This document shows, piece after piece, positions 149 through 63,762 of a stretch of 64,000 nucleotides of DNA (its first letter is position 1; every line of letters begins with the position of its first letter). The position numbers and the translations under genes were made by a program. Under the pieces are notes generated by a model. The model made no database searches, was not told the origin of the DNA, and worked only from the letters and a program-made list of their open reading frames with translations. The stretch is from Yuukianura sp. NJ FZ-2021 (taxonomy: Eukaryota): contig CM102287.1 of NCBI GenBank assembly GCA_046563655.1, positions 1,054,001 through 1,118,000 on the forward strand, read 5' to 3'.

Positions 149-1078
149 ATGGAGGTCCTCATGAGTTATGAGGGAAGATTACAAACTTTTCAGAACGCTC
201 AACTAAGATGGCCATTGAATTTTGTGACCCCGGAAGCATGTTCGTTTGCGGGATTTTACTACCTCGGAGTAGATGACAAGGTGGGTAATTTTCAGCTTTA
301 TGTGAAAAGATAACGTGGGTAGATGACATGGTGGGTAATTTGCAACTTTCTTTAAAATGTAAAAAAAAGTGTTAATGTTTTCTCTGTCGTAAATCAGGTT
401 GCGTGTCCGTATTGCCGAGGTGTCGTCGGGGAGTGGGTGGTTGGTGATGAGCCATTGTTGGAGCACCGCAAACATTTCCCCCGTTGTCCGTATGTTGTGG
501 TCATGACCGGTCTACTATCCGGGGTTGGGTTTGTTACTGTTCCGGATGTAACTGGGACCCACGGAATCGAGGCGGCCGGAGCAACGAGAATTGATGTTTT
601 CGAATATGTGAGCACAGGAAATGGTATGCGCGGCGCGGTAGCTTCTGATGTTTCCACCGACCCTGACCAGCCGGGAACAGATCCTGCCAGTGCTGAAACG
701 GGAGGAACCGAGTTGGTCGCAGCAACCGCGCCGGAAACCGACGTTCCCGGCGATGGAGGAGCGGATTTGGCCGGGCCTGCAACACGTTACGTGGCAGAAA
801 TAACTACTCTCGAAACTAATATACCCAGTGTAAGAGGAACTGATGTTGCCGGGACAACTGAACACATTTTAACAGCGGCATCCAGCGCTTTGGCTTCCGG
901 TGTTAGGAAAGACGACTCTGGCAACAGCCTTACTTGTAAGATTTGTTGGGACAAAGAAGCTTGCGACGTGTTCTTGCCATGTAAACATTTGGTTGCATGT
1001 CGTAAATGCTCATTGTCATTAAAAAGTTGTGCAGTTTGCAGAGAACCTATACTAATTAGATTTAGGGTGTATACCTAG
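149..1078 (+). CDS. iap: Inhibitor of apoptosis (single BIR + C-terminal RING), 2 exons: 149-280, 398-1078
   Basis: Splicing GT281..AG397 (phase 0) joins RLQTF..WP..AGFYYLGVDDK to VACPYC..W..GDEPLLEHRKHFPRCP (BIR). The C-terminus is a RING, CKICWD..FLPCKHLVACRKC..CAVCR. Confidence 0.93.
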
Positions 1079-1355
1079 TCAAGTGTTGATATTCTGTGTC
1101 AAGTTTTCCAAGTCCTCCCACAACCCAATTCAAGTAAATGTTGAATTGAGTTGTGGGATGACTTTTGTTGCTGTGAGTTCGAATCCTACGTTGAGAAATG
1201 AATAAAAAAAATCGAATCCTACGTTGAGAAATGAATAAAAAAATCGATTCAAGTTTTATGTGTTTTTGTTTGAGGTACGTTTTGCGAATTAGTATTTAAT
1301 GAAGTGGAAGTTTTGAGGAAGTAAGCATTTGTTGTGATAGCTAAGAGGAAGAAGC

Positions 1356-1971
1356 ATGGAAGGAATACGCAGATATGTATGTGACAACTGTGGAGAACGT
1401 TTCGATTCACAAGATTCCTTTTGGGATCACGCTTTTGAACATCATGTTTACGACCTTCGCATACCACGTCAAGGTATTTTGCTTTCAAAAAGAAAAAACA
1501 TTCGCTTTGGAGTATCTTGTGAAGTTGTTTAAATTTGGTTAGAGTGGGAACCAAAAGACGAACAAGTTGCGGGTCCAAGTCGTCCCAGGGTACCAGTCAA
1601 TGACGAATCTGGAGCAAGGAATTTGGAAAGACCAGTTGACCCAACTGTTGATGAAATTTTAGAAGGGCTGCTTGATTACGAAGGTAGTAGCAACAGAACA
1701 GAATTAGAGCGAAGTAGATGGCTTTGTGTTGAAATTAAGAAATTGATGTTTTTTTGTAGAAGAATTGTCAGAAACTCAACAATCGGTCATCAATGCAGAC
1801 TTGTCAAACTTTCGAGAGAGGTTCTGTTCACATTGCGCGATCAAGTTTGAGAACGCAGGAGAGCTCGACTACCATCGGTTTGTGTTTCATCGTGTAGAGT
1901 TGGCCCTTGTGCCAACTCTAAGAAAGATCTGGAAAGATGACCGCTCGATCGTACGACTGGAAAGGAACTGA
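1356..1971 (+). pseudogene. Spliced C2H2 zinc-finger coding region, probable N-terminus of Polinton PolB, cut by an LTR (exons 1356-1473, 1543-1683, 1760-1968)
   Basis: Two GT-AG introns keep the frame. Fingers are YVCDNCGERF..FWDHAFEHH and FCSHCAIKF..LDYHRFVFH. The stop TGA is supplied by the TG of the LTR at 1969. Assignment to PolB is inferred from position. Confidence 0.65.
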
Positions 1972-2145
1972 TCTTTATTCTTCGAATTAAGATCTGAATC
2001 AAAAAATAAGAAATAAAACTAAAAGCTAAGCTGTGCTGTGCGGTGTGGTCTGTCCTCCTCGTGGCTCTGCTCCTCTCCTCCTCCTCTGCTGCTGCGCGGA
2101 CCCCTCCTACTCCTCGGACTGCGGGGAAAATAGCACATCGTCACA
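1969..2145 (-). repeat. Probable 3' LTR of element 1 (short, possibly truncated)
   Basis: On the minus strand a purine tract (..GAGGGGGC..CCAGGAGGA) is followed by TGTGACG..., then AATAAA, ending ..GATCA. There is no partner LTR to confirm it. Confidence 0.55.
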
Positions 2146-2167
2146 TCCTCCTGGACGAAAGCCCCCT

Positions 2168-3843
2168 CTACTGGCGAAGCGCCGTCCGACGTTTGACCTT
2201 GTTGCGCTTGTGCGAAAGTCTGGCCCTGCGATTCTCTTTCTGGCGTCTTTCCTTGTTGGAATTGATAAGTGCCTTCCTGGCTTTCGGATTCGGGCAGGAT
2301 CGGTGCTCGTGTGATGTGTCGTGGCAAAGGAAGCATCTTCTGGTGCTGATTGGTGCATCGGGAAGTGGAATTTCTGGAAATATGTCCGGATCATCATCAT
2401 AGTTCACATGGATTTCAATGTCTGGTTCTGTAGTTTGCATGTCAACGTCAGGAGCTTGAATAGGCGATATGATTTTTGGTTCAGGAACAATCGGATGTAC
2501 AATTGGAGTTGGTTCGTCTGGTTCCGATGCTGGTTCTGGTTCTGGTTCAGGAGTTCGTTTCTGGTTTACTACCACGACTGTGCTTCTGACTGTAACGTTA
2601 AGGTCGGACCAACTATCTTCGCTTTCGTCGTCGGTGCTGACGTAAGATGGTGCTCTGGTTGGTGGTGGTGGAATGTTGGCGATGACGTGGTAAACTTGAG
2701 CGATGGCGTCACAGATTTGATTTTGAATTTCAAGTGAACATTTGAAAATCTTAACTACGTCTTTTGGACATGAAGGAGCCACTATGGCTAAAGTTCTCAT
2801 TTGATCAAATGTCATAACCCAATGTACTTGTTTGTCTAGAATTTTTGCCTGATTAAGTGCCCATTGGTACAATTTACTAAAAATACATTTCTGAATTTGA
2901 TTGAGTGCTTGTGCATGCTTGCCTAAAACTATTTCTACCGTTGTTTTGTCACACGCACGGTACAATTTTAAAGATTTCTCCATAGATGCGGGGAAAATTG
3001 GTAACTTTGATTCTAATTTATGTACAAAGTCTAGTTGAAGGTCGCTGCCACTCGCTGCGTCCTTCATTTTCTTAACACATTTGTTCCAAAGTAATAACAA
3101 ACAAAAACTATCGTACCAAGCATAGTTCAATAACTCTTGTGGTAAACGACTGAGCTTATCTCTCACTGTCCAATCTGCTGCCTGAGCATCCTTTGACACC
3201 TCTACATCAAGTAAATATTTACACATCGTGGAAAGTGAAGTAGCTTCAAATCTAGTGTCTACACCGAAAAATAACATATGATACAATTCTTGTAAGTCTA
3301 TTATAGGGAAAATGAATATGTCAAAGTCACGCTGCGTCATGAGTAAATCATTGTCGCTGCCAAGTAGAATTTTGACAATATTCGTGCATGAAAAATTTTT
3401 GGGAGATTCTCCTTAAGCCAATTGCAAATCGGGGGAACGTCTATAACGAAATCATGATCTTCTACTGAGATTTGAATAGTAGTGATGAAATCTTGGTAAC
3501 AATTAGTCTGATGAAACTCCATATCTACAAAAAGTAACTGTTTCTTAAGTAAAAACTCTAACATCTGCTCTGCATGGTAACTTGTCTTAATCCAGTGATG
3601 AGTTCTAAAATCTGGTACTTCTAATTCTCTAAATAATGGCAAATCTGGGTTCCAGTTTCTAATTTCTTTCTCAAAAGGGTGAACTCTTGAAATTTTAGGC
3701 TCTATAGCAAAATTTACACTCTGTCTCATCTTTAAAAATTCGGGATACAAATCTTGCGGTCTAGCTTCTACGGACTTCCATTTCAATTTAGCTTCTTTCT
3801 GTGCTAGTTTCCATTTCTGAGCCTGTCTCTGCTTGCTATTCAT
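2168..3843 (-). CDS. Rrp6/EXOSC10-like DEDDy 3'-5' exonuclease + HRDC + CCHC knuckle (one 1-bp frameshift at ~3384)
   Basis: Motifs are HPFEKEI; VDMEFH..YQDFITTIQIS (ExoI); NIVKILLGSDNDLLMTQRDF (ExoII, read across the frameshift); KDAQAADWTVR..LPQELLNYAWYDSFCLL (ExoIII); LYQWALNQAKILDKQVHWVM (HRDC-like); CFLCHDTSHEHRSC. Confidence 0.88.
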
Positions 3844-4065
3844 TTTGAGGGTACAGTCGCTGCCTGAATCGCTGCGTCTGTACTGTAAATAACCAAAAAT
3901 ACTAAAATTAGTTTAAATCATAATCTTAATTAAGTGCATTCTAGCCTAAGTTATTTTCAACTTAACCTAGTGATTTCAGCCTAACCTAAATTGATTTCAC
4001 TTAACCTAAGGCGCCAACTAACTAAATTCTTAATCTAACTTAACTAAGAGCTCTTCTAACCTAAC

Positions 4066-7000
4066 TTAAGTCCTAAATCCTGCTAATTGCCTGTAATTTA
4101 CTGGTTTTCTGTCTCTGAGTTGTCTTTTCTCTGGTTCTTCTGGAATTTTGGTTCGAACTGTCTCGGTATCTCTTGGAAAATATGGTTTTAAGTCACTGAC
4201 GTGTCTAACTCCTGCTGACTTTCTTTCTGGATAAGTACAAATTTGGAATGTAACTGGAGTGACTTGTTTGACAATAACATAAGGACCTATCCACTTTGGA
4301 GCTAATTTTTGAGCTATACCTTCGTCTTTGTTAGATTGTACTCTGTTTCTAGTCAAAACAAACTGATTTTCGTCAAACGAAACTTCTCTACGATTTTGAT
4401 CATAGTATTTCTTGTATGCAGCTTGAGCTTTGTCAATATTCGTTCTGACCCAACTAATTGGATTTTTTAAGTACTGATTTAATTCAATTGCATGAGACTC
4501 TGGTAACTCGAAATTTTCCTTTTCTGGCTCTGAAATTTGTCTGTCGAATGGCAAACTAATCTCACGACCTAAGTTTAACATTGCTGGTGTTACTTTAGTA
4601 CTTTCATTACAAACTGTTCTTAATGCAAGTGCGAATTTTTGGATATGTAAATCCCAACTCGAATGTTGACCGTCTACAAATGCACAAATCATTGCTTTAA
4701 TGTTTCTATTTATCCTTTCTGCTAAATTTGGCTGTGGATGGTAAACTGCGAAAAATCTATGGTCGATATTCCAATCTTTACAACACTTTTTCATTAAGTT
4801 AGACAAAAATTGAGATCCATTGTCTGTGATTATCGTTTTTGGACTTCCGTACCTGCAGAATACGTGATCCTCTAAACAATCTACAATCTTTTTAGCCGTT
4901 GCTTCTCTTAACGGGAACATTTCTGTCCACTTTGACAATTGATCGACTACAACTAACAAATACTCATTCCGTCTGCCTCCTGCACTAACCGGAAGTGGAC
5001 CAATTAAATCTGCGTAAATGACTGAGAAAACCTTTTTCGCTGCTCGAATTATACCCATAGTCCCTGCGGGTTTTAGATTATCATACTTGACTTCCTGACA
5101 AACTTTGCATGTTTTGACGTAATTTGCTATATCTTTGTTCATGTCTGGCCAATACACTCTGCTTTGAACTCTGAATTTTGTTTTTCTGACCCCTGGATGA
5201 CCTGAATGAGGTTCATCATGTAACTCTTTTAGAACCAAATTTCTGAGACTTTTAGGCACAACAGGTAAGTACAACTTAACTCTATCCTTAACACTATTCT
5301 TATCTCTAGGCTTAACACTAATCTTAACACTAACGCTAGCTTCTTCTTCTTCATCTGTACCTACTTTCTTTTCGGAACGAGGAGCATCTTCGCATCCCAC
5401 ATTGTTCCTTACGAACGGAGAGCTCTTCGGCGTCCCACACTGTTCTTTTAGACGCTCTTGGTCTTTAGGGCAATCTTCCCTTTTTGCTCTACCAGGCACT
5501 GCCGCTGGGAGTCTATCTAGGCCTTTCTCTTCGGTATTCTGTACAAAACAACTTTCGTTTGTAAAACCAATCTGTGGATCAACTCTGTCCACTTGTGGGG
5601 TCATGCTACCCACTTTGCGCTTCCGCAAACTTCTATTTTTCTTTGTGTGCACTATCCTAAACAGGATTCCATCTTTGATAACATAATTTTCTAAATTGCA
5701 TGATCTTTTAAACCCTTTCTGCGGTTTTTTAAGTTCTTCTTTTAACGTCAAAATTTCTACATCTGTCCTTTGTGCATCTTTTATGCTCTCTAAGGTAACT
5801 GAACTTCCAAAAATTGAAAAAATTTCTTGGGTCGCCGCCCCTCGCGTCGTCCCAAACGTAGGAATATCCATAATTTTCATCTCATCATCTAAATAACTTT
5901 GATCATCTTTGAGAGCTTTTACTGGAGCTCGTGATAGTGCATCTGCCACTATATTTTCTTTTCCTGGTCTATGCTTAATCTCTAAATCCTGATTCTGAAT
6001 TTGAGCGGACCATCTCATCAATTTTTTTGAATTGTTCTCCATGGTTTTCAACCATTGTAATGCTGAATTGTCCGTTTCTAAGTACACTTTCTGTCCAAAG
6101 ATGTACTCCCTAAACTTATTTAGTGCAAAAATAATAGCTAAACACTCTTTTTCTGACGTAAACAGCCTCTGTTCCGTCTCATTTAAGACCTTGCTTGCAA
6201 AATATACAGCTTTTTCTTTTCCATCTACTTTTTGAAACAGAACTGCGGAAATACCATAGTCTGAACTATCTGTGGTAATGTAAATTTTTTCCGAATAATC
6301 TATCCCGTGAAGTGTAACATCTTCACACATTCTCTTTTTCAAATTTTCAAAAGATTTCTGCTGCTCTGGTCCCCAAACAAACTTTACATCTTTTCTTAAC
6401 AATTTATACAAAGGTGCTGCGATCTCAGCGAATTTTTCTATGAACGAGGAATACCATAAACACATTCCATGAAATTTCTGAATTTGTCTCAATGTTTTTG
6501 GAGCTGGATAATTTACAATTGCTCTAATTTTTTCTGGCTGCTTCTTAATACCTTCTTTTGTAATCAAATGACCCAAAAAACTAGTCTGTCTCTTGAAGAA
6601 ATGACTTTTCTCTCTATTAATTGTGAGATTTGCTTCTGCTAACCTTCTAAAAATCAATTCTAAATGACGCTTGTGCTCTTCCAAAGTTTTACTGTAGACC
6701 AAAATATCATCCATGTAAATAGCAACAAATTTAAGACAAAAATCACTAAACACATTATTCATCAACGAAACAAAAGTAGCGGGTGAACCTTTCAACCCGA
6801 ATGGCATTACGTTCCATTCGTACAAATTTCCATCAGCGTAGAATGCTGTCAACTCTTTACTTTCTTCTTTAAGTGGAATTTGCCAAAATCCTGACTGCAT
6901 GTCAATAATGGAATAGTAACCTCCTGTAGGTATAGTTCTTAAATTTGACTTGCATTGTGCATTGGAATAACATAACCTTTAGTTTTTGCATTAATTCCCT

Positions 7001-7790
7001 TGTAATTGATCGTCATTCTCAATTTACCATTCTTTTTCATAGTCAAAACTGGATTTGCGCCGTATGGCGATTTAGAATGTCTAATTAGGCCTCTGTCCAA
7101 CAAATCTTTCACCTGATTTCTGATCTCTTGTCTAATGTTAGGCGGATAACCTCTAGGAACTTGTTTGACTGGAGTAAAATCCGTCAAAATGATTTCATGT
7201 TGAGCAAATGGAGTAATTCCGAATTCACCATTTGGTCTCACTACTGTAGGAAACTTTTCTGCCAATTGAGTAATAAAATGATCGTTTGAACTAATGGAAA
7301 GCAACATTGAATTTTTTAACTTCGTAACAAAACTGATTCGTCCACTCTGATCTTTGGTTGGATACTGCCGGTGCGCTGTATCATCAAACCAAAATGTTTT
7401 TTGTTTTAAATTAAGAACAATTCCTTCTTTTCGAATCAAATCCTTTCCAATTATACAAGAAATCGGTAATTTTTCCGTAATTTTAAACCTGTGTTTAATG
7501 AGTTTGTGGCCAAGTTGAAATTCTAAATCGATTTCACCAACTGTTTCTAACGTTTCTGTATTTGCGCATGTCAAATCTATGGAATCGAACGAAGACCATT
7601 CTCTGTTTAATTTATTAGCCAATTGCTTTGAAATTATAGACCAATCACTGCCTGTATCAATCAATGCTTCGAATTCTAACCTCTTCTGATTTGGAAAATA
7701 CTCTACTTCATTTTTGCCCTCGGAATTTTTGTAATTGAAAATTGGGAGTAAATGGGACTGGGCGGGTTCCTTCTCCCTTAATAGTTTAAA
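4066..7790 (-). CDS. pol: Pol polyprotein (protease, RT, RNase H, integrase); 1-bp frameshift at ~6940
   Basis: Motifs are LIDTGS; IDMQSGFWQI..MPFGL..YMDDIL; TDSSDYG..EKECLA..TDN; HDEPHSGH..CKVC; ADL..TDNGSQF..AERINR; PKWIGPY. Confidence 0.95.
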
Positions 7791-9136
7791 TAGTCTTGAC
7801 CAGAACGTGAATTTCGTGGTTGGTTGTATTGTGGGACGTCGCCTGTATACGCGTCGTCCCTAAATTTCTGACTTTCTCTTGGTTGCGACTGCTGAACGTT
7901 TGGTTGTCTCTGAGACGGTCCTGGTTCACGATACTGACTCTGACTTTCTTGTCTAGCCGGCGGAAAATTTTGAAAATTCTGTTGTTCTCCTTGAGTAATA
8001 ACACCTACTGTATTATTCTGAGGACATTCCCTGGCGAAATGACCAAAATCCTGGCAGGTGTAACATTGTAAGTCCTTTCGACTAACTCTGCGACCATTAT
8101 TAGAACTTGGATTTCGAAACTGCGGAACTTCTGGGTAACCTCGACCTCTAGGTGCACCTCTGCCTCGTGAATGTTGACCTCTATTATTTTGCGGAAAGTC
8201 TCTGTATCTGCCAAACTGAGCCTCAGCGCTACTAACTTGCTGATTCTGACCCTGGCCTTGCTGATTCTGAGGTTGTCTGAACCTTGGGTTATTGTAAGAA
8301 TTTGGGCCGGAATGACCTTGACCTCTACCATAATTGTTTGGACCTCTGTTTCCTTTATTTCCTCTGTAATTTGAATTCTGACCTCGATTATTCGTTTTCT
8401 GCTTGTTTTCCGTAGGAGTACTTGACTGACTTTTGTTAAAATCGCTTTCAACTGGGATTGTTCTAACTGGAGGAAGCTTTGTAACCTCATTTTTGCGTCT
8501 ATCCTCTGCTTTAATATCGTAGATGACCCTCTTTGCCTCGTTAATTAGATCAGCTGGAGTCCAACTCTGGCTATAACCTACCAAACATCTGATTTGTGGA
8601 TACAAAGCATCACGACATCTCTTAACAATTCGAAACATTTCCTCTTTCGGATTGACCTGGTGGCTCAAAGTAACCATTTCCCAAACGAAACTTTCAACTG
8701 ATTCTGTAACCTTTTGTTTCCTAGTCAACAATAATTTAGCCCTGAATTCCTTTTCTTCAATAGTATCATACTTTGCGATGAAACTCTTTTTGAATTGTGA
8801 CCACGACTTAATGTCATCTCGTACATTGTCATACCAAGCTTTTGTCTCTTTAGTCATGATAGTTCGAATCAGATACAAATATTTGTCCTTTGTGTAATTC
8901 TGGCTTTGAAAATAAGACTCAACATCTAACAAATAAGAAGCTGCAGTTCTCTTCCTATAATCATAAACTGGAACTGGAATGTTTGGATTAACCCCTGTGA
9001 TCGTGTAATGAACTTTTGGCAATTTGCTAGAAACTTTTTTCTTTCCTTGCACTACCTCACTTTCATCTGAATCTGAATTGTTCAATCTAGAAGCGTCGCT
9101 GGGATGCGCGTCACCTCTTCTACTCCTAGTCTCTCT
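7778..9136 (-). CDS. gag: Gag (N-terminally truncated) with CCHC knuckle
   Basis: AWY..SWSQFKKSF..RKQKVTESVESF, a Q/N/G-rich linker and CYTCQDFGHFAREC. The frame stays open upstream to the polB junction. Confidence 0.9.
   Translation of the reverse strand, partial: RETRSRRGDAHPSDASRLNNSDSDESEVVQGKKKVSSKLPKVHYTITGVNPNIPVPVYDYRKRTAASYLLDVESYFQSQNYTKDKYLYLIRTIMTKETKAWYDNVRDDIKSWSQFKKSFIAKYDTIEEKEFRAKLLLTRKQKVTESVESFVWEMVTLSHQVNPKEEMFRIVKRCRDALYPQIRCLVGYSQSWTPADLINEAKRVIYDIKAEDRRKNEVTKLPPVRTIPVESDFNKSQSSTPTENKQKTNNRGQNSNYRGNKGNRGPNNYGRGQGHSGPNSYNNPRFRQPQNQQGQGQNQQVSSAEAQFGRYRDFPQNNRGQHSRGRGAPRGRGYPEVPQFRNPSSNNGRRVSRKDLQCYTCQDFGHFARECPQNNTVGVITQGEQQNFQNFPPARQESQSQYREPGPSQRQPNVQQSQPRESQKFRDDAYTGDVPQYNQPRNSRSGQDYLNY
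7784..7790 (-). promoter_or_regulatory. -1 ribosomal frameshift heptamer T TTA AAC (gag-pol)
   Basis: Sits at the gag end (YLNY*). The -1 frame reads FKLLREKEP...EALIDTGS without a stop. Confidence 0.8.
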
Positions 9137-9724
9137 GAAAAGTTTGTGTGTCGTTTTTGTATGTGTTTTTCAAAAAGCGAAAAGAAATTGCAAAATCACC
9201 AAAAGTTTTGTGCGGCGTTGGACATACAACGCGTCGTTTTACCAACCGAAAAATACTTCACGTCAAAATTCATCGTGCAACGTCTTCCTGTGCCGTATGT
9301 CATATACTTAGACTTTGAAGCACTGTTAGTACCTACAGACGGGATTGGTACTCGACAATCTGGTGCCGTTTATAATGAACATTTAGACTGTGGGTGGTCA
9401 ATGAGTATCATTGGGCCGGACGGTTATCTGGCGGACCGTGTTGTGACATTTTGTGGTCCGAATGCTGCACTGAGGTTGGTCGACGAGCTCGTGTCTGTTG
9501 CCGGAAAGATATATCCAATTTTGAAAGAAGATGTAGGCCTCGACCCACGATGGACAGAATCTGACTATGCTCACCTTTTGCTGGCTTCAACTCACTGTAT
9601 TCATTGTGGACTGGAGTTTGTGGAAGGGGTTGACACTAAGTGCATTGACCACTGCCATGTTACATCAACCATTCGTGGAGTGAGTTGCGGTCCTTGTAAC
9701 CTGAACGCCCAAGTTTGTTCATTC

Positions 9725-10105
9725 TGTTACGAAGTTAACAATGCAAAAAATTATGGTAATTGTTTTCTGTCTTTTGTCTTTGCAAATCCTAGTTTTTGCA
9801 CATGTAATCCAGTTAGAACTAGTTCTCTAAGTTAAAAATAGATTTCTAACCGTTAGTCTTTTGTTTTGTGCACAATGTAGTTGACATTAGATCTGCATGT
9901 AATTAACTCGGCGCGTGTCGAGTCCCTATAAAAAGGGCTCGGCCGTGACCTCAAGAATCATTCCTTTTCCAATTCTAAAACTTACCAGAACTCTGTCCGT
10001 TCTGCGAACGGACCAGAGGTCAACAACCTAACTTTCTGAAAATAAAAGTTACTCTTCTCTGCAATTTGCGAGTCTCCTAGCAGTAAACGATCATTTTTCA
10101 GAACA
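9725..10105 (+). repeat. 5' LTR of element 2
   Basis: Direct repeat of 12685-13065, containing TATAAAA and AATAAA. Confidence 0.93.
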
Positions 10106-12684: not shown

Positions 12685-13065
12685 TGTTACGAAGTTAACA
12701 ATGCAAAAAATTATGGTAATTGTTTTCTGTCTTTTGTCTTTGCAAATCCTAGTTTTTGCACATGTAATCCAGTTAGAACTAGTTCTCTAAGTTAAAAATA
12801 GATTTCTAACCGTTAGTCTTTTGTTTTGTGCACAATGTAGTTTACATTAGATCTGCATGTAATTAACTCGGCGCGTGTCGAGTCCCTATAAAAAGGGCTC
12901 GGCCGTGACCTCAAGAATCATTCCTTTTCCAATTCTAAAACTTACCAGAACTCTGTCCGTTCTGCGAACGGACCAGAGGTCAACAACCTAACTTTCTGAA
13001 AATAAAAGTTACTCTTCTCTGCAATTTGCGAGTCTCCTAGCAGTAAACGATCATTTTTCAGAACA
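12685..13065 (+). repeat. 3' LTR of element 2
   Basis: Direct repeat of 9725-10105. Confidence 0.93.
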
Positions 13066-13904
13066 ATTCATTCCAGTTGTTTGTCATGGTTTTCGACACT
13101 ATGATTCGAAATTTATTGTACAAGCGTTGCGTGCTAGTACAATTAAATCTGTGGAAGTTTTGGCGAGCAGCAGCACCGAGAAGTTTACTGCTCTTCGGTT
13201 GACAACCCATGGAGATCATGTTCTGCGAATGATTGATTCGTATCAGTTTATTAGTGCGAGCTTAGCAGAGCAAGTCAAAATGCTTGCCAAAGAAGGAAAA
13301 GACAAATTTGGTGTGACTTGTCATCATTTTCAACAGTACGGAAGTAAAATTGAATTACTTTTAAGAAAAGGGGTTTACCCTTACAGTTACTTTGACTCCA
13401 TGGAGCGTTTTGATGAAACGTGTTTGCCACCTGCCGAAAAATGGAAAAGCGATTTGACTGGAAAATCCATCAGTCCTGAAGATTTGGAACATGCGCATAC
13501 GGTTTGGCGGGAATTTGGCTGTCAAACATTGAGAGATTATCACAACTTGTACGTTTCTCTTGATGTTTGCCTCCTGGCGGATTGTTTCCAGAATATGAGA
13601 AGAAGTATGCTCGAGAGTTTCCGCCTGGATCCTGCTCACTACCTCACTCTTCCAGGAATAGCATACGACGCAGCAATGTTTGCAGGAAAAGTGGAGTACG
13701 AGTATCTGGATGAGATTGACAAGTACATGTATTTTGAACGCGGGATTCGGGGTGGAATTTGTTCTGTCGGACTACGTTATGCAAAAGCGAACAACCCTTA
13801 CTTGGGGAATTTATATGACCCCACGCTTCCATTGAGTTACATTTGCTACTGGGATGCAAACGCCTTGTACGCAACTTGTTTGAGGAACTACGTACCTTGG
13901 AAAT

Positions 13905-14275
13905 TGTAACGCCCTACGACGCTAAACAACTGAAAAACACTCCACCAGACTACTCCGCTGAGTCTGCAGACTCCAGATCCAAATGACCCCTGACCAATCA
14001 CCAGAACACACAACACATCGACGGATAAATATAAATGTATATTTATTAAGTCGATGAAATAAATACACTGAAAAACAACTGCTAAATACTAAACATGACT
14101 GGAGATCTCTGATCTCCACAAAACCCAATCAACCACTGACTCTATATACAAAACTCATCTCTCTCTCTCTCCTCGCCACATCTCAAAACTCCCGCGACTC
14201 CACTCGCCGCATCTCTGCCAAATCTCAATAAGATAGAATCTTATGGCTACTAAGCCTACGCAGCAGACGCCAACA
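13905..14275 (-). repeat. 3' LTR of element 3
   Basis: TGTAACG...CCAACA, repeat of 16817-17187. Confidence 0.93.
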
Positions 14276-54974: not shown

Positions 54975-55198
54975 ATTCAAAGTGAATTTGATATATACTC
55001 TGAAATAATCAAAATTTTATTATAAAACAAGGGTTTAAACATAAACGTTTTTAACATTAGAAACTGTTTATATCTTAAAAGCTCAGCTTAAATTCCTTTC
55101 CGGTTAGTCAATTGTGCACTTAATAGTCATATTAATCATAGCTCCAAATTTAGCTCTCAGTTATCTTTCTTAAGTCAAACTGAAAACATCTATCTACA

Positions 55199-55693
55199 AT
55201 GCGGCAGAGGTACGTGTTTAATCACGAACATTACTACAACACTTTGAGTGACCAAATTGGCAATGGAATGCCTGTGTTTCATGGGGTACGTCAAAGAGGG
55301 GGTGGGATTGGTTCCATCCTAGGCGGGATTGCCAAGTACGCATTGCCAATCATCATGAAGTGGATTTTGCCTCGCGCAAAGGAAGCTGCAGTTAAAACTG
55401 TGAGTGGCATTGCGGGAGGACGCCAGTCGGTAAAGAAGGCTTTGAAAGAAAACAGCGTTGGATTTTTGAAGAACGTCGGCTCGGATCTTTTGAATTCAGT
55501 AGTAGGAAGTCAAACCGGAAACGGTGTTCGAAATAAACAGAAGCGGACGTACACGAAGAGGAAACCCGCGAAACTAAGGAAGCAAGTTTCGGCAAACAAG
55601 GTTAAGAAATCCAAATCGAAAGTCTCAAAAAAACGAAAAGCGAAACCAAATCCAACAAAGACGAAGAGAACCAAATTAGATATTTTTGCATAA
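55199..55693 (+). CDS. Basic core/membrane-active virion protein with QxGxG motifs
   Basis: QIGNG, RQRGGGIGSILG, SQTGNG, Lys-rich tail ending DIFA. Confidence 0.87.
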   Translation: MRQRYVFNHEHYYNTLSDQIGNGMPVFHGVRQRGGGIGSILGGIAKYALPIIMKWILPRAKEAAVKTVSGIAGGRQSVKKALKENSVGFLKNVGSDLLNSVVGSQTGNGVRNKQKRTYTKRKPAKLRKQVSANKVKKSKSKVSKKRKAKPNPTKTKRTKLDIFA

Positions 55694-57021
55694 TGTCTTT
55701 GCTGCATTCCCGGTCTAAACCGGCCATTCGTGGAGAAGTCGACCTATTTTCAATCCCAGCAACAGATACGACGTGTGACTACAGTATGTACGAAGAGTAT
55801 CAGCCAGTTGTGAACGTTCAGGACGCTTCAAACAAAATCGAATTTAAGATTCCTGGGAATAGTAACCATTACCTGGATTTGGCAGACAGCTTCCTGCGGA
55901 TCAAGGTAAAAGTGACGCAGAAGACCGGAGATAACCTAGGAACGGATTCCACAGTTGGAACTGTGAATTTATTTATGCATGCCCTCTTCTCACAACTGGA
56001 CATTTATTTTAATGAAAAACTTGTGTCCACAAGCAATAATGGCTACTCATATCGGGCGTACATAGAAACATTGCTTTGCTACGGAAAAGACTACAAAACC
56101 TCGCAGGGTGGATGTGCTTTGTACTATGAAGACACAGTTGGTGGAATTGCAGACTCGACAAACCTAGGATGGGAGAAACGAAAAAGCTACATCAACGAAT
56201 CGAAAGACTTGGAACTAATCGACAAATTGAGATTTAACCTAGCTAATCAACATCGATACATATTGAATGACGTGAACGTTCGCATTTGTCTCACACGATC
56301 TTCCGATGCATTTGCCCTTTTTTCAAAAAAGAAGGGTGAGGATGGAGTAATCAAGTTCTTATCGGCAACATACTACATCCGAAAACAACTGCCATTTCCT
56401 AGCATTATATTGGCTCATCAGAGACTTTTAGAAAAGGGTGAAATTGCTCAATACCCATTTAAGTCCACTGAAGTGAAATACTTTACCATTGCTCAAGGAA
56501 ATTCGTCTGCCCTCGAAGAAAACCTTTTTGCAAATACTGTGCCAAGTCGTATTATAATTGGATTTGTGGATAGCTTGGCGTTCAACGGAGATTTCAATTC
56601 AAATCCGTTTCGTTTCCACAATTACAACATTAAGTCCATTTCGATTTCAGTCAACAATGTGTCTATACCAATTAGGCCGTTGTCCTTGGACTTTCCAAAT
56701 AACGAATGTCTTTTGGCATACTATCTTTTATTTACGAGCACAGGAATAGCTGGGCACGATGTTGGACTGTCTTTTGGGCGAGATGACTACAAAGAGAGCA
56801 ATGCCCTATTTACATTTGATATTCTTCAACCCACTGGGAACGAGGCACTCCTTCATTTGGAAAAATCTGGGAGCGTGAAAATTGAAGTTCAGTTTGGCAG
56901 GGCGCTAGAAAAATCAGTGCACTGTGTTATTCTGTCTGAACAACAAGGGGTTTTGGAGATTGACAAGTACCGACTGTTGTGGCACAATGAATACCACCGA
57001 AATCATGGAGATACTGGATAG
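55693..57021 (+). CDS. Major capsid protein
   Basis: EVDLFSIP, YLDL, NLFMHALFSQ, YSYRAYIETLL.YG, NPF.FH. The last ~15 aa may reflect a 1-bp deletion (restored IDKYRTVVAQ* would overlap the protease ATG). Confidence 0.93.
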   Translation: MSLLHSRSKPAIRGEVDLFSIPATDTTCDYSMYEEYQPVVNVQDASNKIEFKIPGNSNHYLDLADSFLRIKVKVTQKTGDNLGTDSTVGTVNLFMHALFSQLDIYFNEKLVSTSNNGYSYRAYIETLLCYGKDYKTSQGGCALYYEDTVGGIADSTNLGWEKRKSYINESKDLELIDKLRFNLANQHRYILNDVNVRICLTRSSDAFALFSKKKGEDGVIKFLSATYYIRKQLPFPSIILAHQRLLEKGEIAQYPFKSTEVKYFTIAQGNSSALEENLFANTVPSRIIIGFVDSLAFNGDFNSNPFRFHNYNIKSISISVNNVSIPIRPLSLDFPNNECLLAYYLLFTSTGIAGHDVGLSFGRDDYKESNALFTFDILQPTGNEALLHLEKSGSVKIEVQFGRALEKSVHCVILSEQQGVLEIDKYRLLWHNEYHRNHGDTG

Positions 57022-57538
57022 GAACATCAACGGATCATACCAAACTGCAGTTCTACCGTCCGACAAATTAAACGTTATTACTTCGGATCAGTTCGCAGTT
57101 GTAGCAAATTCCCAAACTTCCAAGGAACCAGGAATGCATTGGATCGGCATGTTCAAAAAACGAGGAGGTAGGGAAGTAGAATTCTTCGACAGCTGTGCAA
57201 TGCCGATTCACTTTTACAATCCTAGCTTTGTCGATTTTCTTTACTCCAAATCCGACGTCATAAGGATGAGCAGCCTTAGAGTTCAGCCGGAGCATAGCGA
57301 TGCTTGTGGACAGTTCGCGCTATACTACTTGATACACAGAGTCAAGGGAGAATCATTCGAAAAAATCCTGAGTAGGTTCGACGAATTTGATCTAAATGTA
57401 AACGACAACATTGTTAGAGACTTCGCAGCAATTAACTTACATTACGATAATACATGCTTCAGGGGTGACTCCCAAAACTTAGAAGTAACCAGAATCATTC
57501 AGTGTTGTGAGATTTTAGAAGTTCTACTCAACATGTAA
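56987..57538 (+). CDS. Adenain-like cysteine protease
   Basis: MNTTEI, PGMHWIG, EFFDS, VQ..SDACGQF, ND. Catalytic His, Asp and Cys are present. Confidence 0.9.
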   Translation: MNTTEIMEILDRNINGSYQTAVLPSDKLNVITSDQFAVVANSQTSKEPGMHWIGMFKKRGGREVEFFDSCAMPIHFYNPSFVDFLYSKSDVIRMSSLRVQPEHSDACGQFALYYLIHRVKGESFEKILSRFDEFDLNVNDNIVRDFAAINLHYDNTCFRGDSQNLEVTRIIQCCEILEVLLNM

Positions 57539-57605
57539 GTTTCGGTTCCTACAAGTGTATATATTTAACGTGACCAAATTGTACATTCATTCTAATCTTA
57601 TTAAA

Positions 57606-58535
57606 ATGAAATCTCAAGTTGCGAAAGCATACAAGAACATCGGAAGTTCTACTTATTTGGGGGGCAAGAAACATTTAAGTAAGTTAAACGGTATTTCTGA
57701 TTCTACAGCATTGAAATTCTTACAAACTCAAGACTCATACACGCGCCATAAGAGTCGGAGGTGCAAATTTCGCAGGAGACGGGTAACATCACCAGGTATA
57801 AACTACCTATGGCAGGCTGATATTGTTTTTTTGCCAAAATACACTGAAGAAAACGATGGCTATTCTTGTCTTTTAACCGCAATTGATGTCCTGTCAAAGT
57901 ATGCATTTGCTGTGCCAATGAAATCAAAGAAAACTAGCGAAGTTATTCAAGCATTTAAGCGGATCATCTCTTCAGGGAAAGGAAAACCTGTAACACTAGA
58001 ATGCGATCAAGGTTTAGAATTTTGGTCAGCTACATTCCAGAAGTGGGCAAAGTCTCTTGGCATATTGATGTACCATAACTTTTCAGACTTTGGTTCATCC
58101 GTTATTGAACGGTTTAACCGAACAATATGCACAGCTATCTCAAGACATCTTACTGAAAGTGGTCAAGCGAGATACATTGAAGCCCTGCCTTTTCTTATAA
58201 AGACTTATAACAGCAAAATACATTCGCGAACAAAAGTGGCGCCATGCGACGTTAACAAATACAATGAAATGGACGTATGGTTGGAATCTTATAAGGACTT
58301 GTATTCAAAACCTAAATCAAGGGCTACTCTTAAACTGTACGACCGCGTTCGCCTAGATAAAACGAAACACATATTTGGCAAAGGTTATTGGCCTGCTTTT
58401 ACGAGCGAAATTTTCGAAGTTTGTGAAGTCATCAATTCCATTCCTGTGACGTATCGTGTCAGGGATCTCTCTGGTGAGCAAATTTCTGGCATCTATTACA
58501 GTCAAGACCTCAGCAAGATAAGTTTAAAAGTGTAA
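57606..58535 (+). CDS. int: Retroviral-like DDE integrase of Polinton B
   Basis: WQAD, IDVLSKYA, CDQGLEF, IERFNRT, F.KGY..FT.EIF. Confidence 0.93.
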   Translation: MKSQVAKAYKNIGSSTYLGGKKHLSKLNGISDSTALKFLQTQDSYTRHKSRRCKFRRRRVTSPGINYLWQADIVFLPKYTEENDGYSCLLTAIDVLSKYAFAVPMKSKKTSEVIQAFKRIISSGKGKPVTLECDQGLEFWSATFQKWAKSLGILMYHNFSDFGSSVIERFNRTICTAISRHLTESGQARYIEALPFLIKTYNSKIHSRTKVAPCDVNKYNEMDVWLESYKDLYSKPKSRATLKLYDRVRLDKTKHIFGKGYWPAFTSEIFEVCEVINSIPVTYRVRDLSGEQISGIYYSQDLSKISLKV

Positions 58536-58536
58536 A

Positions 58537-59283
58537 ATGGGATTCTATATTACATTACCGTCGAACGGCTCACGTTATTTTTCTGACAATCGAACCAGTA
58601 ACTACAGGATTAAACTTCCATCCAAAATAAAACTTGAGCCTTCCTTATACGAAGTCGGGCTTACTGAGTTGACTTATGTGTGCTCCATAAAAACCCTAAC
58701 CGGAGCTGAGAAAGACAACCTCATTGAGTATAATGCTGCGAAGACTGCCGGGACAATAGAGCTTCCTTTACTTCATTACAGTACCGTGGAGCATTTAGTT
58801 CACATAATCAACGCAGCTTTTATAAAGCACAGCGTCCCTTCCAACTTGAAGTACTATGAAACAAAGTGTCGTGTTATCCTGGAAGTAGAAGCTGGATTTA
58901 GTATCGAAATAAGTGAGAAACTCTCCTACATTTTGGGATTTAATGGTACGCTTGAATTTAATTCAAATCAGCAAAATACTTACTTCATAGCCGATTCTCC
59001 ACCGGATATACTCGGTGGGCGATATCACATGTTTCTATACTGTGACATAATAGAGTCTCAAATCGTTGGATCCTCTCTTGTGCCTCTGCTTCGTATGGTA
59101 AACATAATTGGAAACGAAGGACAAGCAGTCACTCAAACTTTTGCTCATCCGTTTTATCTGCCGATTTCAAGGAGCGAGTTTGACATCATCTCTATTGTAC
59201 TGTGTGACGAATTTGGGGGGGAATTGCAAATTGACAATGGTCAAGTGACTTTAACTCTACATTTTAAGACGATATCAACCTAA
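58537..59283 (+). CDS. Minor capsid protein (penton)
   Basis: FYITLPSN, YEVGLTEL, MFLYCDII..QIVG..PLLR, HPFY, LTLHFK. Confidence 0.9.
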   Translation: MGFYITLPSNGSRYFSDNRTSNYRIKLPSKIKLEPSLYEVGLTELTYVCSIKTLTGAEKDNLIEYNAAKTAGTIELPLLHYSTVEHLVHIINAAFIKHSVPSNLKYYETKCRVILEVEAGFSIEISEKLSYILGFNGTLEFNSNQQNTYFIADSPPDILGGRYHMFLYCDIIESQIVGSSLVPLLRMVNIIGNEGQAVTQTFAHPFYLPISRSEFDIISIVLCDEFGGELQIDNGQVTLTLHFKTIST

Positions 59284-60088: not shown

Positions 60089-61339
60089 TCATTCTTGTCT
60101 TGGTTGTCGCCGTTCGAGCTCCAGAAGCCTCTCCTGCATGTCCCGGATCTGGCGTACTAAGTCGGGGATGAGGACATCGGGCGGTGGTAAGTCGCCAAGG
60201 GTGAGGTGTCGTTGACTTGCGGTGGGGTATGGCGACATTCGTCGGCTGGGTATATGAGTGGTGGTTTCTGCGGCTCGTCGGCTCGGCGAGCGTATCCCTT
60301 CCAAGAATTCGGGGCCGAACCAGACAAGTAATTGGGGAATGAGTTGGGACGCTCGGCCTTCGTCCATTCCGGGTGGTTTGGGTAACGTGGTAATCCGTCG
60401 GGACAGTCCTCTGATGAACTCGAGATTGGTACCGGTCTTCCATCGTGCGTAGTCGGCAACGAAGAGTTGAGTGGGAACGTCCAAGACTCGAGCGACATAA
60501 ATGATACTAGCGCGAATTCGTGCATCTCGACGGTCGACTGGTAGGGTATTCGAAAAGAAGTGGATTAGTCGAAACGGCTCTGCGGTTTGTTCATGGGTGG
60601 TCTCCAGCATGCCTTGTAAGAGTGCTGGGATGTCAATTGATCCAATTGCGTAGCCGTCCTGTAGGTACACGGTAATATCTTTCCACAGTTGAGCGATTGT
60701 TTCGGTGTGATCGACCATGCGAGGGTCATCTTGTTGCAGGCGGTGTTGGGGAAATCCTGCCGGTATGGTTACCGTGGACTGGAAGTAGCTTCTCAGGGTT
60801 CGTGGCGCTGCTTGGTCTGACAAACCGAGTATGTGGCTGCGGATAGTCTCCACGTCCAAGACACTGCGTGGAATGACTCCGAAATCTCGTTCAATCCACT
60901 GTTGTTGCTCCTTGCCATTGTAGCAAATCTTCATTATCCGCGGTGATGCAAACAGAGTTTTTAGCGGGCCGTGCGTGTCTTCATCTCTGGGGTCCATGAT
61001 AAATGTTTTGTTCTTGGAGACAATGACCAAACGGCAGATCGCTCCGATGTATGAGTGCGGCCATTCGAAACAGGAAAAGACAACTGGGGAGAGTTCGATT
61101 GCCTTTGAGACATGTGCCGTAACTTCTTCTTTCGTCTTCAAGACCGTGTAGTTAGATGGAGGTAGGAGCCATCCTGGCGTCCAAAGTGAATCGTGCATAC
61201 GAGCTTCGTCGATGTCCAACACTTCCATCCGGTCTGGGCGTATCATTCGTGCTCCGTCAGTGAGGTTGCGCACTTGTGTTTGCGCGTACTTGAGTTGTGG
61301 GAGGTTCCGTGTGACTGAAGGTGCGATGTCGAATTCCAT
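60089..61339 (-). CDS. Rrp6/RNase D-fold protein, predicted catalytically inactive
   Basis: HSYIGAICRLVIVS..TFIMD, LKTLFASPRIMKICYNG..WIERDFGV..VLDV, and HRDC-like VARVLDVP. The acidic ExoI/II residues are replaced. Confidence 0.72.
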   Translation of the reverse strand: MEFDIAPSVTRNLPQLKYAQTQVRNLTDGARMIRPDRMEVLDIDEARMHDSLWTPGWLLPPSNYTVLKTKEEVTAHVSKAIELSPVVFSCFEWPHSYIGAICRLVIVSKNKTFIMDPRDEDTHGPLKTLFASPRIMKICYNGKEQQQWIERDFGVIPRSVLDVETIRSHILGLSDQAAPRTLRSYFQSTVTIPAGFPQHRLQQDDPRMVDHTETIAQLWKDITVYLQDGYAIGSIDIPALLQGMLETTHEQTAEPFRLIHFFSNTLPVDRRDARIRASIIYVARVLDVPTQLFVADYARWKTGTNLEFIRGLSRRITTLPKPPGMDEGRASQLIPQLLVWFGPEFLEGIRSPSRRAAETTTHIPSRRMSPYPTASQRHLTLGDLPPPDVLIPDLVRQIRDMQERLLELERRQPRQE

Positions 61340-61455
61340 GGCTAAGAAGTACCTGAGAAGGTAGAAATTAGATTAGACGTACAAGTGTGCATGAATTGGT
61401 GTGCATCGTCGAGGTCGTCAGGAGTCGGTTTCTGGGTGTGGGTAGCTTTTTGCGC

Positions 61456-63729: not shown

Positions 63730-63762
63730 TCTGAATATAGAAGATTATGGGTTAATGCTTAA

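Follow-up and report, generated by a model that had tools for sequence, protein, structure and literature searches.

An Rrp6-like exonuclease with an HRDC-like segment encoded by the third open reading frame of a Ty3/Gypsy retrotransposon in Yuukianura sp.

Retrotransposons are usually viewed as targets of the host RNA decay and small-RNA machinery. Cellular Rrp6 carries a head, the PMC2NT domain, that binds Rrp47/C1D, and its C-terminal region docks on the exosome. Exonucleases of the DEDDy type are also encoded by some retroelements: the third open reading frames (ORF3s) of the bdelloid rotifer long terminal repeat (LTR) elements Juno and Vesta, and of Athena/Terminon elements, belong to this type (Rodriguez, Kenefick and Arkhipova 2017, PMC5408684). 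According to that article, these ORFs are nearer to each other than to cellular RNase D, Mut-7, WRN, and Rrp6, they keep their catalytic residues with DEDD changed to DEED, two of the families display a Cys-His-Cys motif, and a retroelement-specific pool of DEDDy ORFs has been proposed (PMC5408684). Here, we describe a 64,000-nucleotide stretch of Yuukianura sp. NJ FZ-2021 (GenBank assembly GCA_046563655.1, contig CM102287.1, positions 1,054,001 to 1,118,000, termed "the window") that harbors, on its minus strand, a Ty3/Gypsy element with an ORF3 located after pol. We consider it likely that this ORF3 is the element's own third gene and codes for a stand-alone Rrp6-type DEDD-Y 3'-to-5' exonuclease-HRDC protein, which would act on RNA 3' ends on behalf of the element. 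Alignments, structural models, and comparison with other copies and relatives establish its identity and fold, the intactness of its active-site residues, its linkage to the element, and its conservation in a diverse family.

The first-pass annotation of the window, made from the letters alone, had described two ORFs joined across a single missing base at ~3384 into a protein of ~560 residues. This holds: the read-through amounts to ~558 codons, and the position of the break is correct to about 15 nucleotides (nt), homology changing frame within 3427-3385. The two stop-to-stop frames, 3912-3337 (191 amino acids, aa) and 3412-2168 (414 aa), overlap over 3412-3337 with an offset of one base. All the motifs listed at that stage are present in ORF3, GSDNDLLMTQRDF and QAADWTVRDKLSRLPQELLNYAWYD among them. 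The features of ORF3 are the following.

3843..2168, minus strand: whole ORF3, ATG at 3843-3841 and stop at 2170-2168, from minus-strand reading.
3843-3428, minus strand: first frame from the ATG, with a basic N-terminus holding RPQD..P.F, then HPFEKEI and the ExoI motif VDMEFH (Pfam, phmmer).
3681-3661, minus strand: RVHPFEKEI.
3525-3523 and 3519-3517, minus strand: D and E of VDMEFH, respectively.
3427-3385, minus strand: zone where homology switches frame, delimited by the Pfam profile gap between the two pieces (2-60 vs 75-172).
3412-2168, minus strand: second frame, 414 aa, with ExoII, ExoIII, HRDC-like segment, linker, knuckle, basic tail, and stop.
3385-3065, minus strand: C-terminal two thirds of the DEDDy exonuclease domain (Pfam DNA_pol_A_exo1).
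2899-2681, minus strand: HRDC-like helical bundle, second-frame residues 172-244 (phmmer, AlphaFold2 (AF2), and Foldseek; below the Pfam cut-off).
2650-2342, minus strand: Pro/Glu/Asp-rich linker, predicted disordered (predicted local distance difference test score, pLDDT, below 50; residues 255-357).
2335-2294, minus strand: zinc knuckle CFLCHDTSHEHRSC, C-x2-C-x4-H-x4-C, by pattern.
2293-2171, minus strand: basic C-terminal tail, predicted long helix (helices 376-385 and 387-413, pLDDT 82-95).

A programmed frameshift was considered for the break and ruled out. The upstream frame holds no X_XXY_YYZ heptamer, and the four relatives covering both sides of the break zone (L001, L004, L008, and L037) have them in one frame in every case, as judged from coordinates. 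P0001, one of the two nearest database matches, reads uninterrupted through the equivalent stretch, and two contigs from other copies span the zone with exactly one gap each, at a position that their alignments do not display. The break is, therefore, a lesion or an assembly error of the window copy.

For the searches, the first-frame part of ORF3 was taken as piece 1 and the second-frame part (414 aa) as piece 2. Both match the Pfam DNA_pol_A_exo1 profile above the Pfam cut-off, piece 1 over profile positions 2-60 (E 8.7e-7) and piece 2 over 75-172 (E 5.2e-10). The exonuclease half of the domain assignment made at first is thereby confirmed by Pfam on both pieces; its HRDC half stays under the cut-off (see below). 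Compared by phmmer with the sequences of solved structures, piece 1 finds Rrp6/EXOSC10 in 12 of 12 matches (yeast Rrp6, E 2.6e-6), with an alignment starting at HPFEKEI, opposite yeast HPYEYEI. At E<=1, piece 2 is matched by 11 distinct sequences, the seven best of which are all EXOSC10/Rrp6; the top one is EXOSC10 3saf_A (E 1.5e-12), and the alignment extends ~110 residues beyond the exonuclease domain into the HRDC region. The catalytic residues of Rrp6/EXOSC10 align with D and E of VDMEFH, the second D of SDND, and Y and D of YAWYD. In second-frame numbering, the ExoII D is residue 22, aligned with D371 of EXOSC10 (full-length chain 7mqa_NV), while the Y and D of ExoIII fall at residues 97 and 101. 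The window ORF3 thus has the complete set of D, E, D, Y, and D, as had been claimed. PMC2NT has no match on either piece, even at E<=10 (Pfam). In the C-terminal part, a linker predicted to be disordered leads to the knuckle and then to a basic helix (AF2), with 20 K+R among the final 70 residues. The ORF3 protein thus lacks the PMC2NT head, and its C-terminus appears unlike that of cellular Rrp6.

The assignment of the element to Ty3/Gypsy, proposed at first sight, rests on the order of its Pfam domains on the minus strand: gag (with CCHC) followed by protease (PR), reverse transcriptase (RT), RNase H, and integrase (IN), over 9134-4066. The Pfam matches along it are Retrotrans_gag, zf-CCHC, aspartyl protease, RVT_1, RT_RNaseH, Integrase_H2C2, rve, and SH3_Tf2-1. 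Around ORF3, the element is laid out as follows.

9134-7778, minus strand: gag with Retrotrans_gag, an Arc-like capsid domain, and zf-CCHC; 5'-truncated, without start codon (Pfam).
7859-6939, minus strand: protease and first part of RT, in a separate frame (Pfam).
7790-7784, minus strand: heptamer TTTAAAC, in gag-frame X_XXY_YYZ register and 3 nt ahead of the stop codon of gag (sequence and frames).
6978-4066, minus strand: remainder of RT, followed by RNase H and integrase (H2C2, rve, Tf2-type SH3), with the pol stop at 4068-4066 (Pfam).
4065-3844, minus strand: non-coding pol-ORF3 spacer of 222 nt with repeated TTAGGTTA-like words (read from the sequence).
3893-3883, minus strand: splice-acceptor-like site, a pyrimidine-rich run then CAG (read from the sequence).
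2152-2146, minus strand: candidate polypurine tract (PPT) AGGAGGA, directly before the TG of the LTR (by position only).
2145-1893, minus strand: putative 3' LTR of 253 nt, TG...CA, with AATAAA at 1979-1974 (contig loose ends, word depth, termini).

ORF3 is therefore found between pol and the candidate PPT and putative 3' LTR, as first annotated. The stretch 2145-1893 is taken as the 3' LTR from its TG/CA termini, the preceding AGGAGGA, the AATAAA, its top word depth, and contig breaks: in Logan contigs, word depth peaks in the bins covering 1768-2335, and contigs part from the window at 1892/1893 in three runs. Another stretch of purines, AGAGGGGG, extends over the stop codon of ORF3. Direct-repeat searches of the window reveal no LTR pair or flanking direct repeats around the element, a second LTR was not found, and no tRNA gene was found in the window. 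The 5' LTR and the primer-binding site (PBS) are missing from this copy, which leaves the candidate 3' LTR and PPT as its only terminal features. At the other end, contigs show loose ends at 9134/9136 in X1 and X3, and pieces of another repeat begin at 9136 in X1 and X2, indicating that this other repeat interrupts the element at 9135, inside gag, and that the window copy is consequently left without gag start, PBS, and 5' LTR. Of note, a perfect 300-nt direct repeat lies beyond that point (9725-10024 and 12685-12984, 2,960 nt apart), and its repeat family begins exactly at 9136, where the Gypsy element is cut off.

The protease frame is -1 relative to gag, and the TTTAAAC at 7790-7784 may well be an ordinary-looking programmed gag-pol frameshift site. 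The break in RT (6939-6978), past which the Pfam RT profile is picked up at position 61 in the following ORF, is private to the window copy or to its assembly: other copies in all four runs, among the rows listed, differ in length by one letter at 6940. Truncated in 5' at 9135 and broken in frame in both RT and ORF3, the window copy is dead; its family is live-looking.

Evidence that ORF3 travels with the element comes from Logan contigs of four DNA runs from two studies, three runs from one sample and the fourth from another study and organism, compared with the window over 1200-9700. The element is repeated and diverged in all four, with 146-393 contig pieces per run at 85-100% likeness, individual pieces ranging from under 90% to more than 99%. 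ORF3 bins are covered about like pol bins in every run. Contigs from other copies join the end of IN, the spacer, and the start of ORF3 (X1 record 3, 3705-4397; X2 record 9, 3798-4216; X3 record 19, 3624-4466). Pieces crossing the spacer contain 12-13 gaps vs 0-3 in coding pieces, with many small indels between copies, which fits a non-coding spacer between two constrained genes. On the minus strand, positions 3930-4065 of this spacer are made largely of repeated TTAGGTTA(A/G)G-like words.

The same arrangement recurs in diverged relatives. A metagenome scan with an alignment of the five closest rows returned 38 loci, of which only L001, L002, L004, L008, and L037 are element-type. L004 starts with an integrase C-terminus (SH3_Tf2-1 and Integrase_p58_C) that is 44.6% identical to the window IN (tblastn E 2e-17); 47 nt past the integrase end, an ORF of 596 aa carries DNA_pol_A_exo1 (E 7e-32) and HRDC and is identical to the database protein P0049. 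L037 possesses a pol C-terminal tail like that of the window (pairwise E 7e-6), followed by an ORF3 homologue. In L002, which carries an exonuclease fragment only, the 4.4 kb upstream show no pol similarity. Sought in other copies, ORF3 is thus present and still joined to pol, as it is in L004 and L037: it belongs to the element and is not a neighbouring host gene. That a host Rrp6-like gene or processed pseudogene would lie by chance beside a Gypsy fragment could be argued from the absent 5' LTR, which leaves the borders of the window copy partly inferred, and from springtail homologues annotated as ordinary genes. This explanation is largely refuted, and its probability is now very small: ORF3 lies inside the element, between pol and the candidate PPT/LTR, it remains joined to pol in other copies, L004 and L037 repeat the arrangement, and its protein lacks PMC2NT and falls in a clade apart from host-type Rrp6.

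The acceptor-like letters noticed before the ATG, TTATTTACAG, are indeed there, with the AG at 3884-3883, 39 nt upstream of the ATG. A pyrimidine-rich run ending in CAG is found between the pol stop and ORF3 in the window, L004, and L037, a suggestive but weak hint at a spliced ORF3 message. At the opposite end of the gene, P0006, P0011, P0020, P0004, and P0068 finish in GG(M/V/L)C/Y-like residues past their basic tail; the ORFs of such relatives may read into the polypurine tract, which would fit the last gene before the LTR.

Relatives of ORF3 are numerous and distant. Searching 1.84 billion representative proteins with piece 2 (HMMER) gives 481 matches at E<=1e-3, of which 12 reach E<=1e-10 but none E<=1e-30. 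The nearest are P0001, a 144-aa fragment with 50% identity, and P0002, a 545-aa protein with 35% identity. The architecture of P0002 is complete: its exonuclease and HRDC-like part are preceded by a basic N-terminus and followed by a linker rich in Ser, the knuckle CYYCKSSEHLAKNC, and a basic tail. RKALINSN follows the knuckle in both P0002 and the window, and the stretch equivalent to the linker is also disordered in the P0002 model (residues 395-475). The knuckle and basic tail described at the end of ORF3 are therefore found at the same place in its nearest full-length relative. The N-terminal motif RPQD..P.F is common to P0006, P0011, P0020, and others. A word-indexed protein search with piece 2, at near and longer lengths, gave no matches, and one with the family alignment gave P0002 itself and a single plant Rrp6, although a word index cannot show absence. 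In the ESM Atlas, no large element-type cluster was found, the nearest being host Rrp6 (0.80-0.85).

Among the 150 matches listed, 77 were picked by eye and scanned with Pfam; most of the short fragments were passed over, as were many long rows. Two groups can be told apart. Forty-eight are host-type, with DNA_pol_A_exo1 at ~127-185 bits (80 bits for the N-terminally truncated P0065), whereas 29 are element-type, at 65-122 bits, their domain starting at residue 60-125 in full-length members. The latter are mostly 480-600 aa long, mostly with basic tails, and represent at least 29 clusters at 50% identity among the scanned matches. PMC2NT is detected in none of these 29 vs 14 of the 48 host-type proteins, and HRDC is found at E<=1e-4 in 13 of the 29. 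The knuckle pattern is displayed by the window, P0002, P0109, P0121, and P0138, with a variant in P0069; in its strict form, it occurs in 4 of 156 stored proteins. The only species-named members, seven proteins in five clusters on several scaffolds, are from the springtail Orchesella dallaii, where they are annotated "HRDC domain-containing" or "3'-5' exonuclease domain-containing" (CAL8135783.1, CAL8110848.1, CAL8103629.1, CAL8134906.1, CAL8129183.1, CAL8135014.1, and CAL8111025.1). Metagenome or Logan assemblies are the source of the remaining members, among which the labels "ribonuclease D" and "RRP6" occur.

A 70-row tree comprised the window ORF3 (X standing for the break), the ORF of L004, all 29 element-type proteins, and 39 host-type proteins out of 48; of the nine left out, eight had truncated domains and one was a transporter fusion. 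One branch, with a Shimodaira-Hasegawa-like approximate likelihood ratio test (SH-aLRT) value of 100, parts the 31 element-type from the 39 host-type rows (unrooted, quick search), and the window ORF3 pairs with P0002 with a support of 99. At the level of these alignments, the tree points to a distinct element-type lineage and is silent on the origin of that lineage. The first-pass annotation had called ORF3 a captured RNA-decay enzyme: kinship with Rrp6 stands, while a recent capture is not supported, the element-type proteins forming their own clade apart from host Rrp6 in this unrooted tree.

Structural models lead to the same relatives. The AF2 model of P0002, computed from the family alignment, has a pLDDT of 77.1 and a predicted template modelling score (pTM) of 0.69. 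In Foldseek, RRP6/EXOSC10 catalytic cores fill every listed row to rank 14, the best being 3saf_A (E 1e-15, TMt 0.66), with 329 columns across the exonuclease and HRDC. The model of piece 2 has a pLDDT of 68.8 overall: the segment 255-357 is disordered, the knuckle and the terminal helix are confident, and the HRDC-like region scores 69-90 per 10-residue block (80-90 at 171-220 and 69-71 at 221-240). RRP6/EXOSC10 cores come first here too (E 1.7e-5 and weaker), in the same order as with P0002, the low TM scores being explained by the missing third of the exonuclease domain. This model also matches isolated HRDC domains of EXOSC10 and WRN (2cpr, TMt 0.62; 2e1e, root-mean-square deviation 2.0 over 71 columns). 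Likeness to Rrp6/EXOSC10, initially read from motifs, is hence borne out by sequence and by fold, folding like Rrp6 having been checked with both models.

Lower in the Foldseek results of P0002 stand RNase D (8.6e-10), Nibbler (7jw2_B, E 5.6e-9), and WRN, which bear on two other readings of the enzyme. In the first, a narrower version of the reading proposed here, ORF3 would be a counter-silencing nuclease that trims or destroys piRNA/siRNA or their precursors, its knuckle and tail recruiting the RNA. Nibbler, a small-RNA 3' trimmer, is among the fold relatives, the active site is conserved across the family, and the rotifer study raises a silencing role for DEDDy ORF3s (PMC5408684). Rrp6 is closer than Nibbler or Mut-7 both by sequence and by fold, however, and nothing favours small over long RNAs as substrate; we hold this restriction to small RNAs to be possible but doubtful. 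In the second, the protein would be a proofreader working in trans for RT: while the element is reverse transcribed or integrated, it would process 3' ends of single-stranded DNA, either trimming the cDNA or taking off mismatched primer termini. DNA_pol_A_exo1 is the proofreading domain of family A polymerases, the WRN exonuclease and an apicoplast polymerase exonuclease domain figure among the P0002 fold matches, and HRDC is also found in DNA helicases (2e1e). Yet by far the best matches are with Rrp6, EXOSC10, and RNase D, which are RNA enzymes, and a DNA-end enzyme appears improbable.

The active site is preserved in most of the family. In the 31-row element-type alignment, the residues are kept as follows, denominators being the rows having a letter at that position: ExoI D in 28/29, ExoI E in 29/29, ExoII D in 28/30, ExoIII Y in 30/30, and ExoIII D in 30/30. 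The exceptions are P0046, P0047, and P0097. The other end of the window harbors a more eroded case, in a second element end (60089-63744) with a GC content of ~0.51 vs ~0.40 elsewhere, whose pol would lie past the window end:

63744-61456, minus strand: Baculo_F-type env ORF, E 7.4e-7 (Pfam).
61372-60089, minus strand: second Rrp6-like DNA_pol_A_exo1 ORF, E 2.1e-5, directly downstream of the env ORF (Pfam).

In hhalign, this second ORF aligns with the element-type profile (probability 95.3%, E 2e-8). T. brucei RRP6 is its closest match among solved structures (E 1e-4), and a direct BLASTP comparison with ORF3 shows no similarity. The positions of ExoI D, ExoII D, and ExoIII Y are each occupied by another residue or a gap, and the ORF is probably catalytically dead, judging from these positions. 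These losses, together with the substitutions in P0046, P0047, and P0097, are what would be expected if ORF3 were a non-catalytic RNA-binding or scaffold protein, EXD1- or Maelstrom-like, using the fold for binding, with nuclease chemistry irrelevant. We find this highly improbable: all five residues are kept in the window ORF3 and in 25 of the 28 members covering all sites, which is hard to explain without selection for catalysis. The second element also bears on the "env position" initially ascribed to ORF3. The place, after pol and before the 3' LTR, is right; an exclusive replacement of env is not, as the second element has a Baculo_F env followed by a Rrp6-like ORF, and both can coexist.

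Returning to ORF3 as an Rrp6-type nuclease serving the element, its mode of action may be sketched. It would be expressed from a spliced subgenomic mRNA via the acceptor-like site 39 nt before the ATG, like the env genes of related elements. The short basic N-terminus, the acidic/proline linker, the CCHC-pattern knuckle, and the basic helix would stand in for the exosome-tethering parts of Rrp6. Knuckle and basic tail might grip single-stranded nucleic acid in the fashion of a retroviral nucleocapsid, and the exonuclease and HRDC core would trim or destroy RNA 3' ends without the exosome, to the benefit of the element. As substrates, one may think of RNA or primer ends of the element itself, host silencing-guide RNAs, and cDNA ends.

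Several observations weigh against this reading. The window copy itself is unable to make the ORF3 protein. On piece 2, Pfam HRDC reaches only E 0.018 and 15.5 bits, vs a cut-off of 23.8, and zf-CCHC (PF00098) has no match, even at E<=10, whereas the gag knuckle of the same element does match; the ORF3 knuckle accordingly rests on its pattern and on conservation in relatives, the Pfam profile not recognising it. The split in the tree is partly circular, the groups having been predefined from Pfam scores and architecture; moreover, the element-type rows are long-branched and the tree comes from a "quick" search. Outside this genome, linkage to pol consists of two short metagenome contigs only, and host genes may be present among the springtail members and the other 26 clusters.

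Other mobile elements and repeats have been observed in the window. ORFs with Endonuclease_7 and organellar/viral type B DNA polymerase domains are located at 9077-9835 and 12992-13909 (plus strand) and have a Maverick/Polinton-type look. A 28-kb tandem array at 26217-54478 comprises 175.8 copies of a 161-bp unit, with 94% matches and a strong negative GC skew. An integrase core (rve, E 4.3e-16) at 57519-58535 (plus strand), among plus-strand ORFs covering 55184-59283, belongs to a separate, unrelated mobile element. Finally, an open frame at 356-1078 (plus strand) displays a BIR domain and a C-terminal RING finger, as in an inhibitor of apoptosis (IAP)-like exon.

An element-borne exosome nuclease, stripped of the parts that bind the exosome and supplemented with an RNA-binding tail, suggests that RNA 3'-end processing may serve a retroelement. 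The ORF3 family seems to be wider, mostly unnamed, and travelling with Gypsy-type elements. Members bear generic names ("ribonuclease D", "RRP6", "HRDC domain-containing protein"), and genes of elements may thus be counted by annotators as host genes. Natural intact members exist, which makes the need of a retroelement for an exoribonuclease directly testable. One may go further and imagine a widespread Gypsy lineage of soil and aquatic invertebrates that uses an exosome-independent Rrp6-type nuclease with a nucleocapsid-like tail against host RNA control, or else as an RT proofreader, an extension to which we give little chance. If true, the targets of such counter-control would be piRNA/siRNA guides or surveillance-tagged transcripts, and the dead Rrp6-like ORF beside env in the window would be a later, binding-only derivative.

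Compared with Rrp6/EXOSC10 (cores 3saf, 2hbj, and 4nlb), ORF3 shares the DEDD-Y domain with all five residues, the preceding HP(F/Y)ExEI, and, by alignment and fold, a following HRDC-like segment. It differs by the absence of PMC2NT, by a linker, knuckle, and basic helix at the C-terminus, where Rrp6 docks the exosome, by its size (~558 codons vs 640-1,000 aa or more for host proteins), by being retrotransposon-encoded, and by its separate clade. A further likeness, which is a lead only, is to Euglenozoa proteins with DNA_pol_A_exo1 and zf-CCHC (an ESM Atlas cluster of 57 members), which also associate an exonuclease and a CCHC finger; in contrast to ORF3, these proteins are cellular, HRDC is not listed for the cluster, and scores are only 0.76-0.82. 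With errantiviruses, in which ORF3 is a baculovirus F-type env, the element shares the position after pol and before the 3' LTR, and the acceptor-like site suggests a spliced subgenomic message in both. Unlike the errantivirus env, the predicted product is a soluble nuclease and not a membrane fusion protein.

The closest described systems remain the rotifer elements. Like the ORF3s of Juno, Vesta, and Athena described in PMC5408684, the window ORF3 is an extra ORF located after pol, codes for a DEDDy exonuclease, and is devoid of transmembrane or coiled-coil env features. The rotifer proteins are termed "RNase D-like", and HRDC, CCHC, and zinc knuckle each occur zero times in the article; the DEDD-Y of the window is intact, in contrast to the DEED reported there. 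Named relatives found here are from the springtail only, and the two sets are likened by description. The precedents invoked by the first-pass annotation are correct for rotifer LTR elements (PMC5408684); for nematode elements, no description of an exonuclease ORF appeared among the papers listed, which did include one on the CERV protein of C. elegans Cer1 (PMC10309623), and "nematode" occurs zero times in PMC5408684, the sole description of an exonuclease ORF in LTR elements found in the freely readable literature. Its remark that the architecture is not known to have been described is right in part: an LTR element with a DEDDy extra ORF was already known, while the exonuclease-HRDC-knuckle-tail form is new. 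The observation of 2017 is thereby extended to another animal group and to a defined architecture, in which an Rrp6-like exonuclease is followed by HRDC, in some members by a knuckle, and by a basic tail. The novelty lies in this Rrp6-like exonuclease-HRDC architecture with its knuckle and basic tail, in its occurrence outside rotifers, and in the size of the family.

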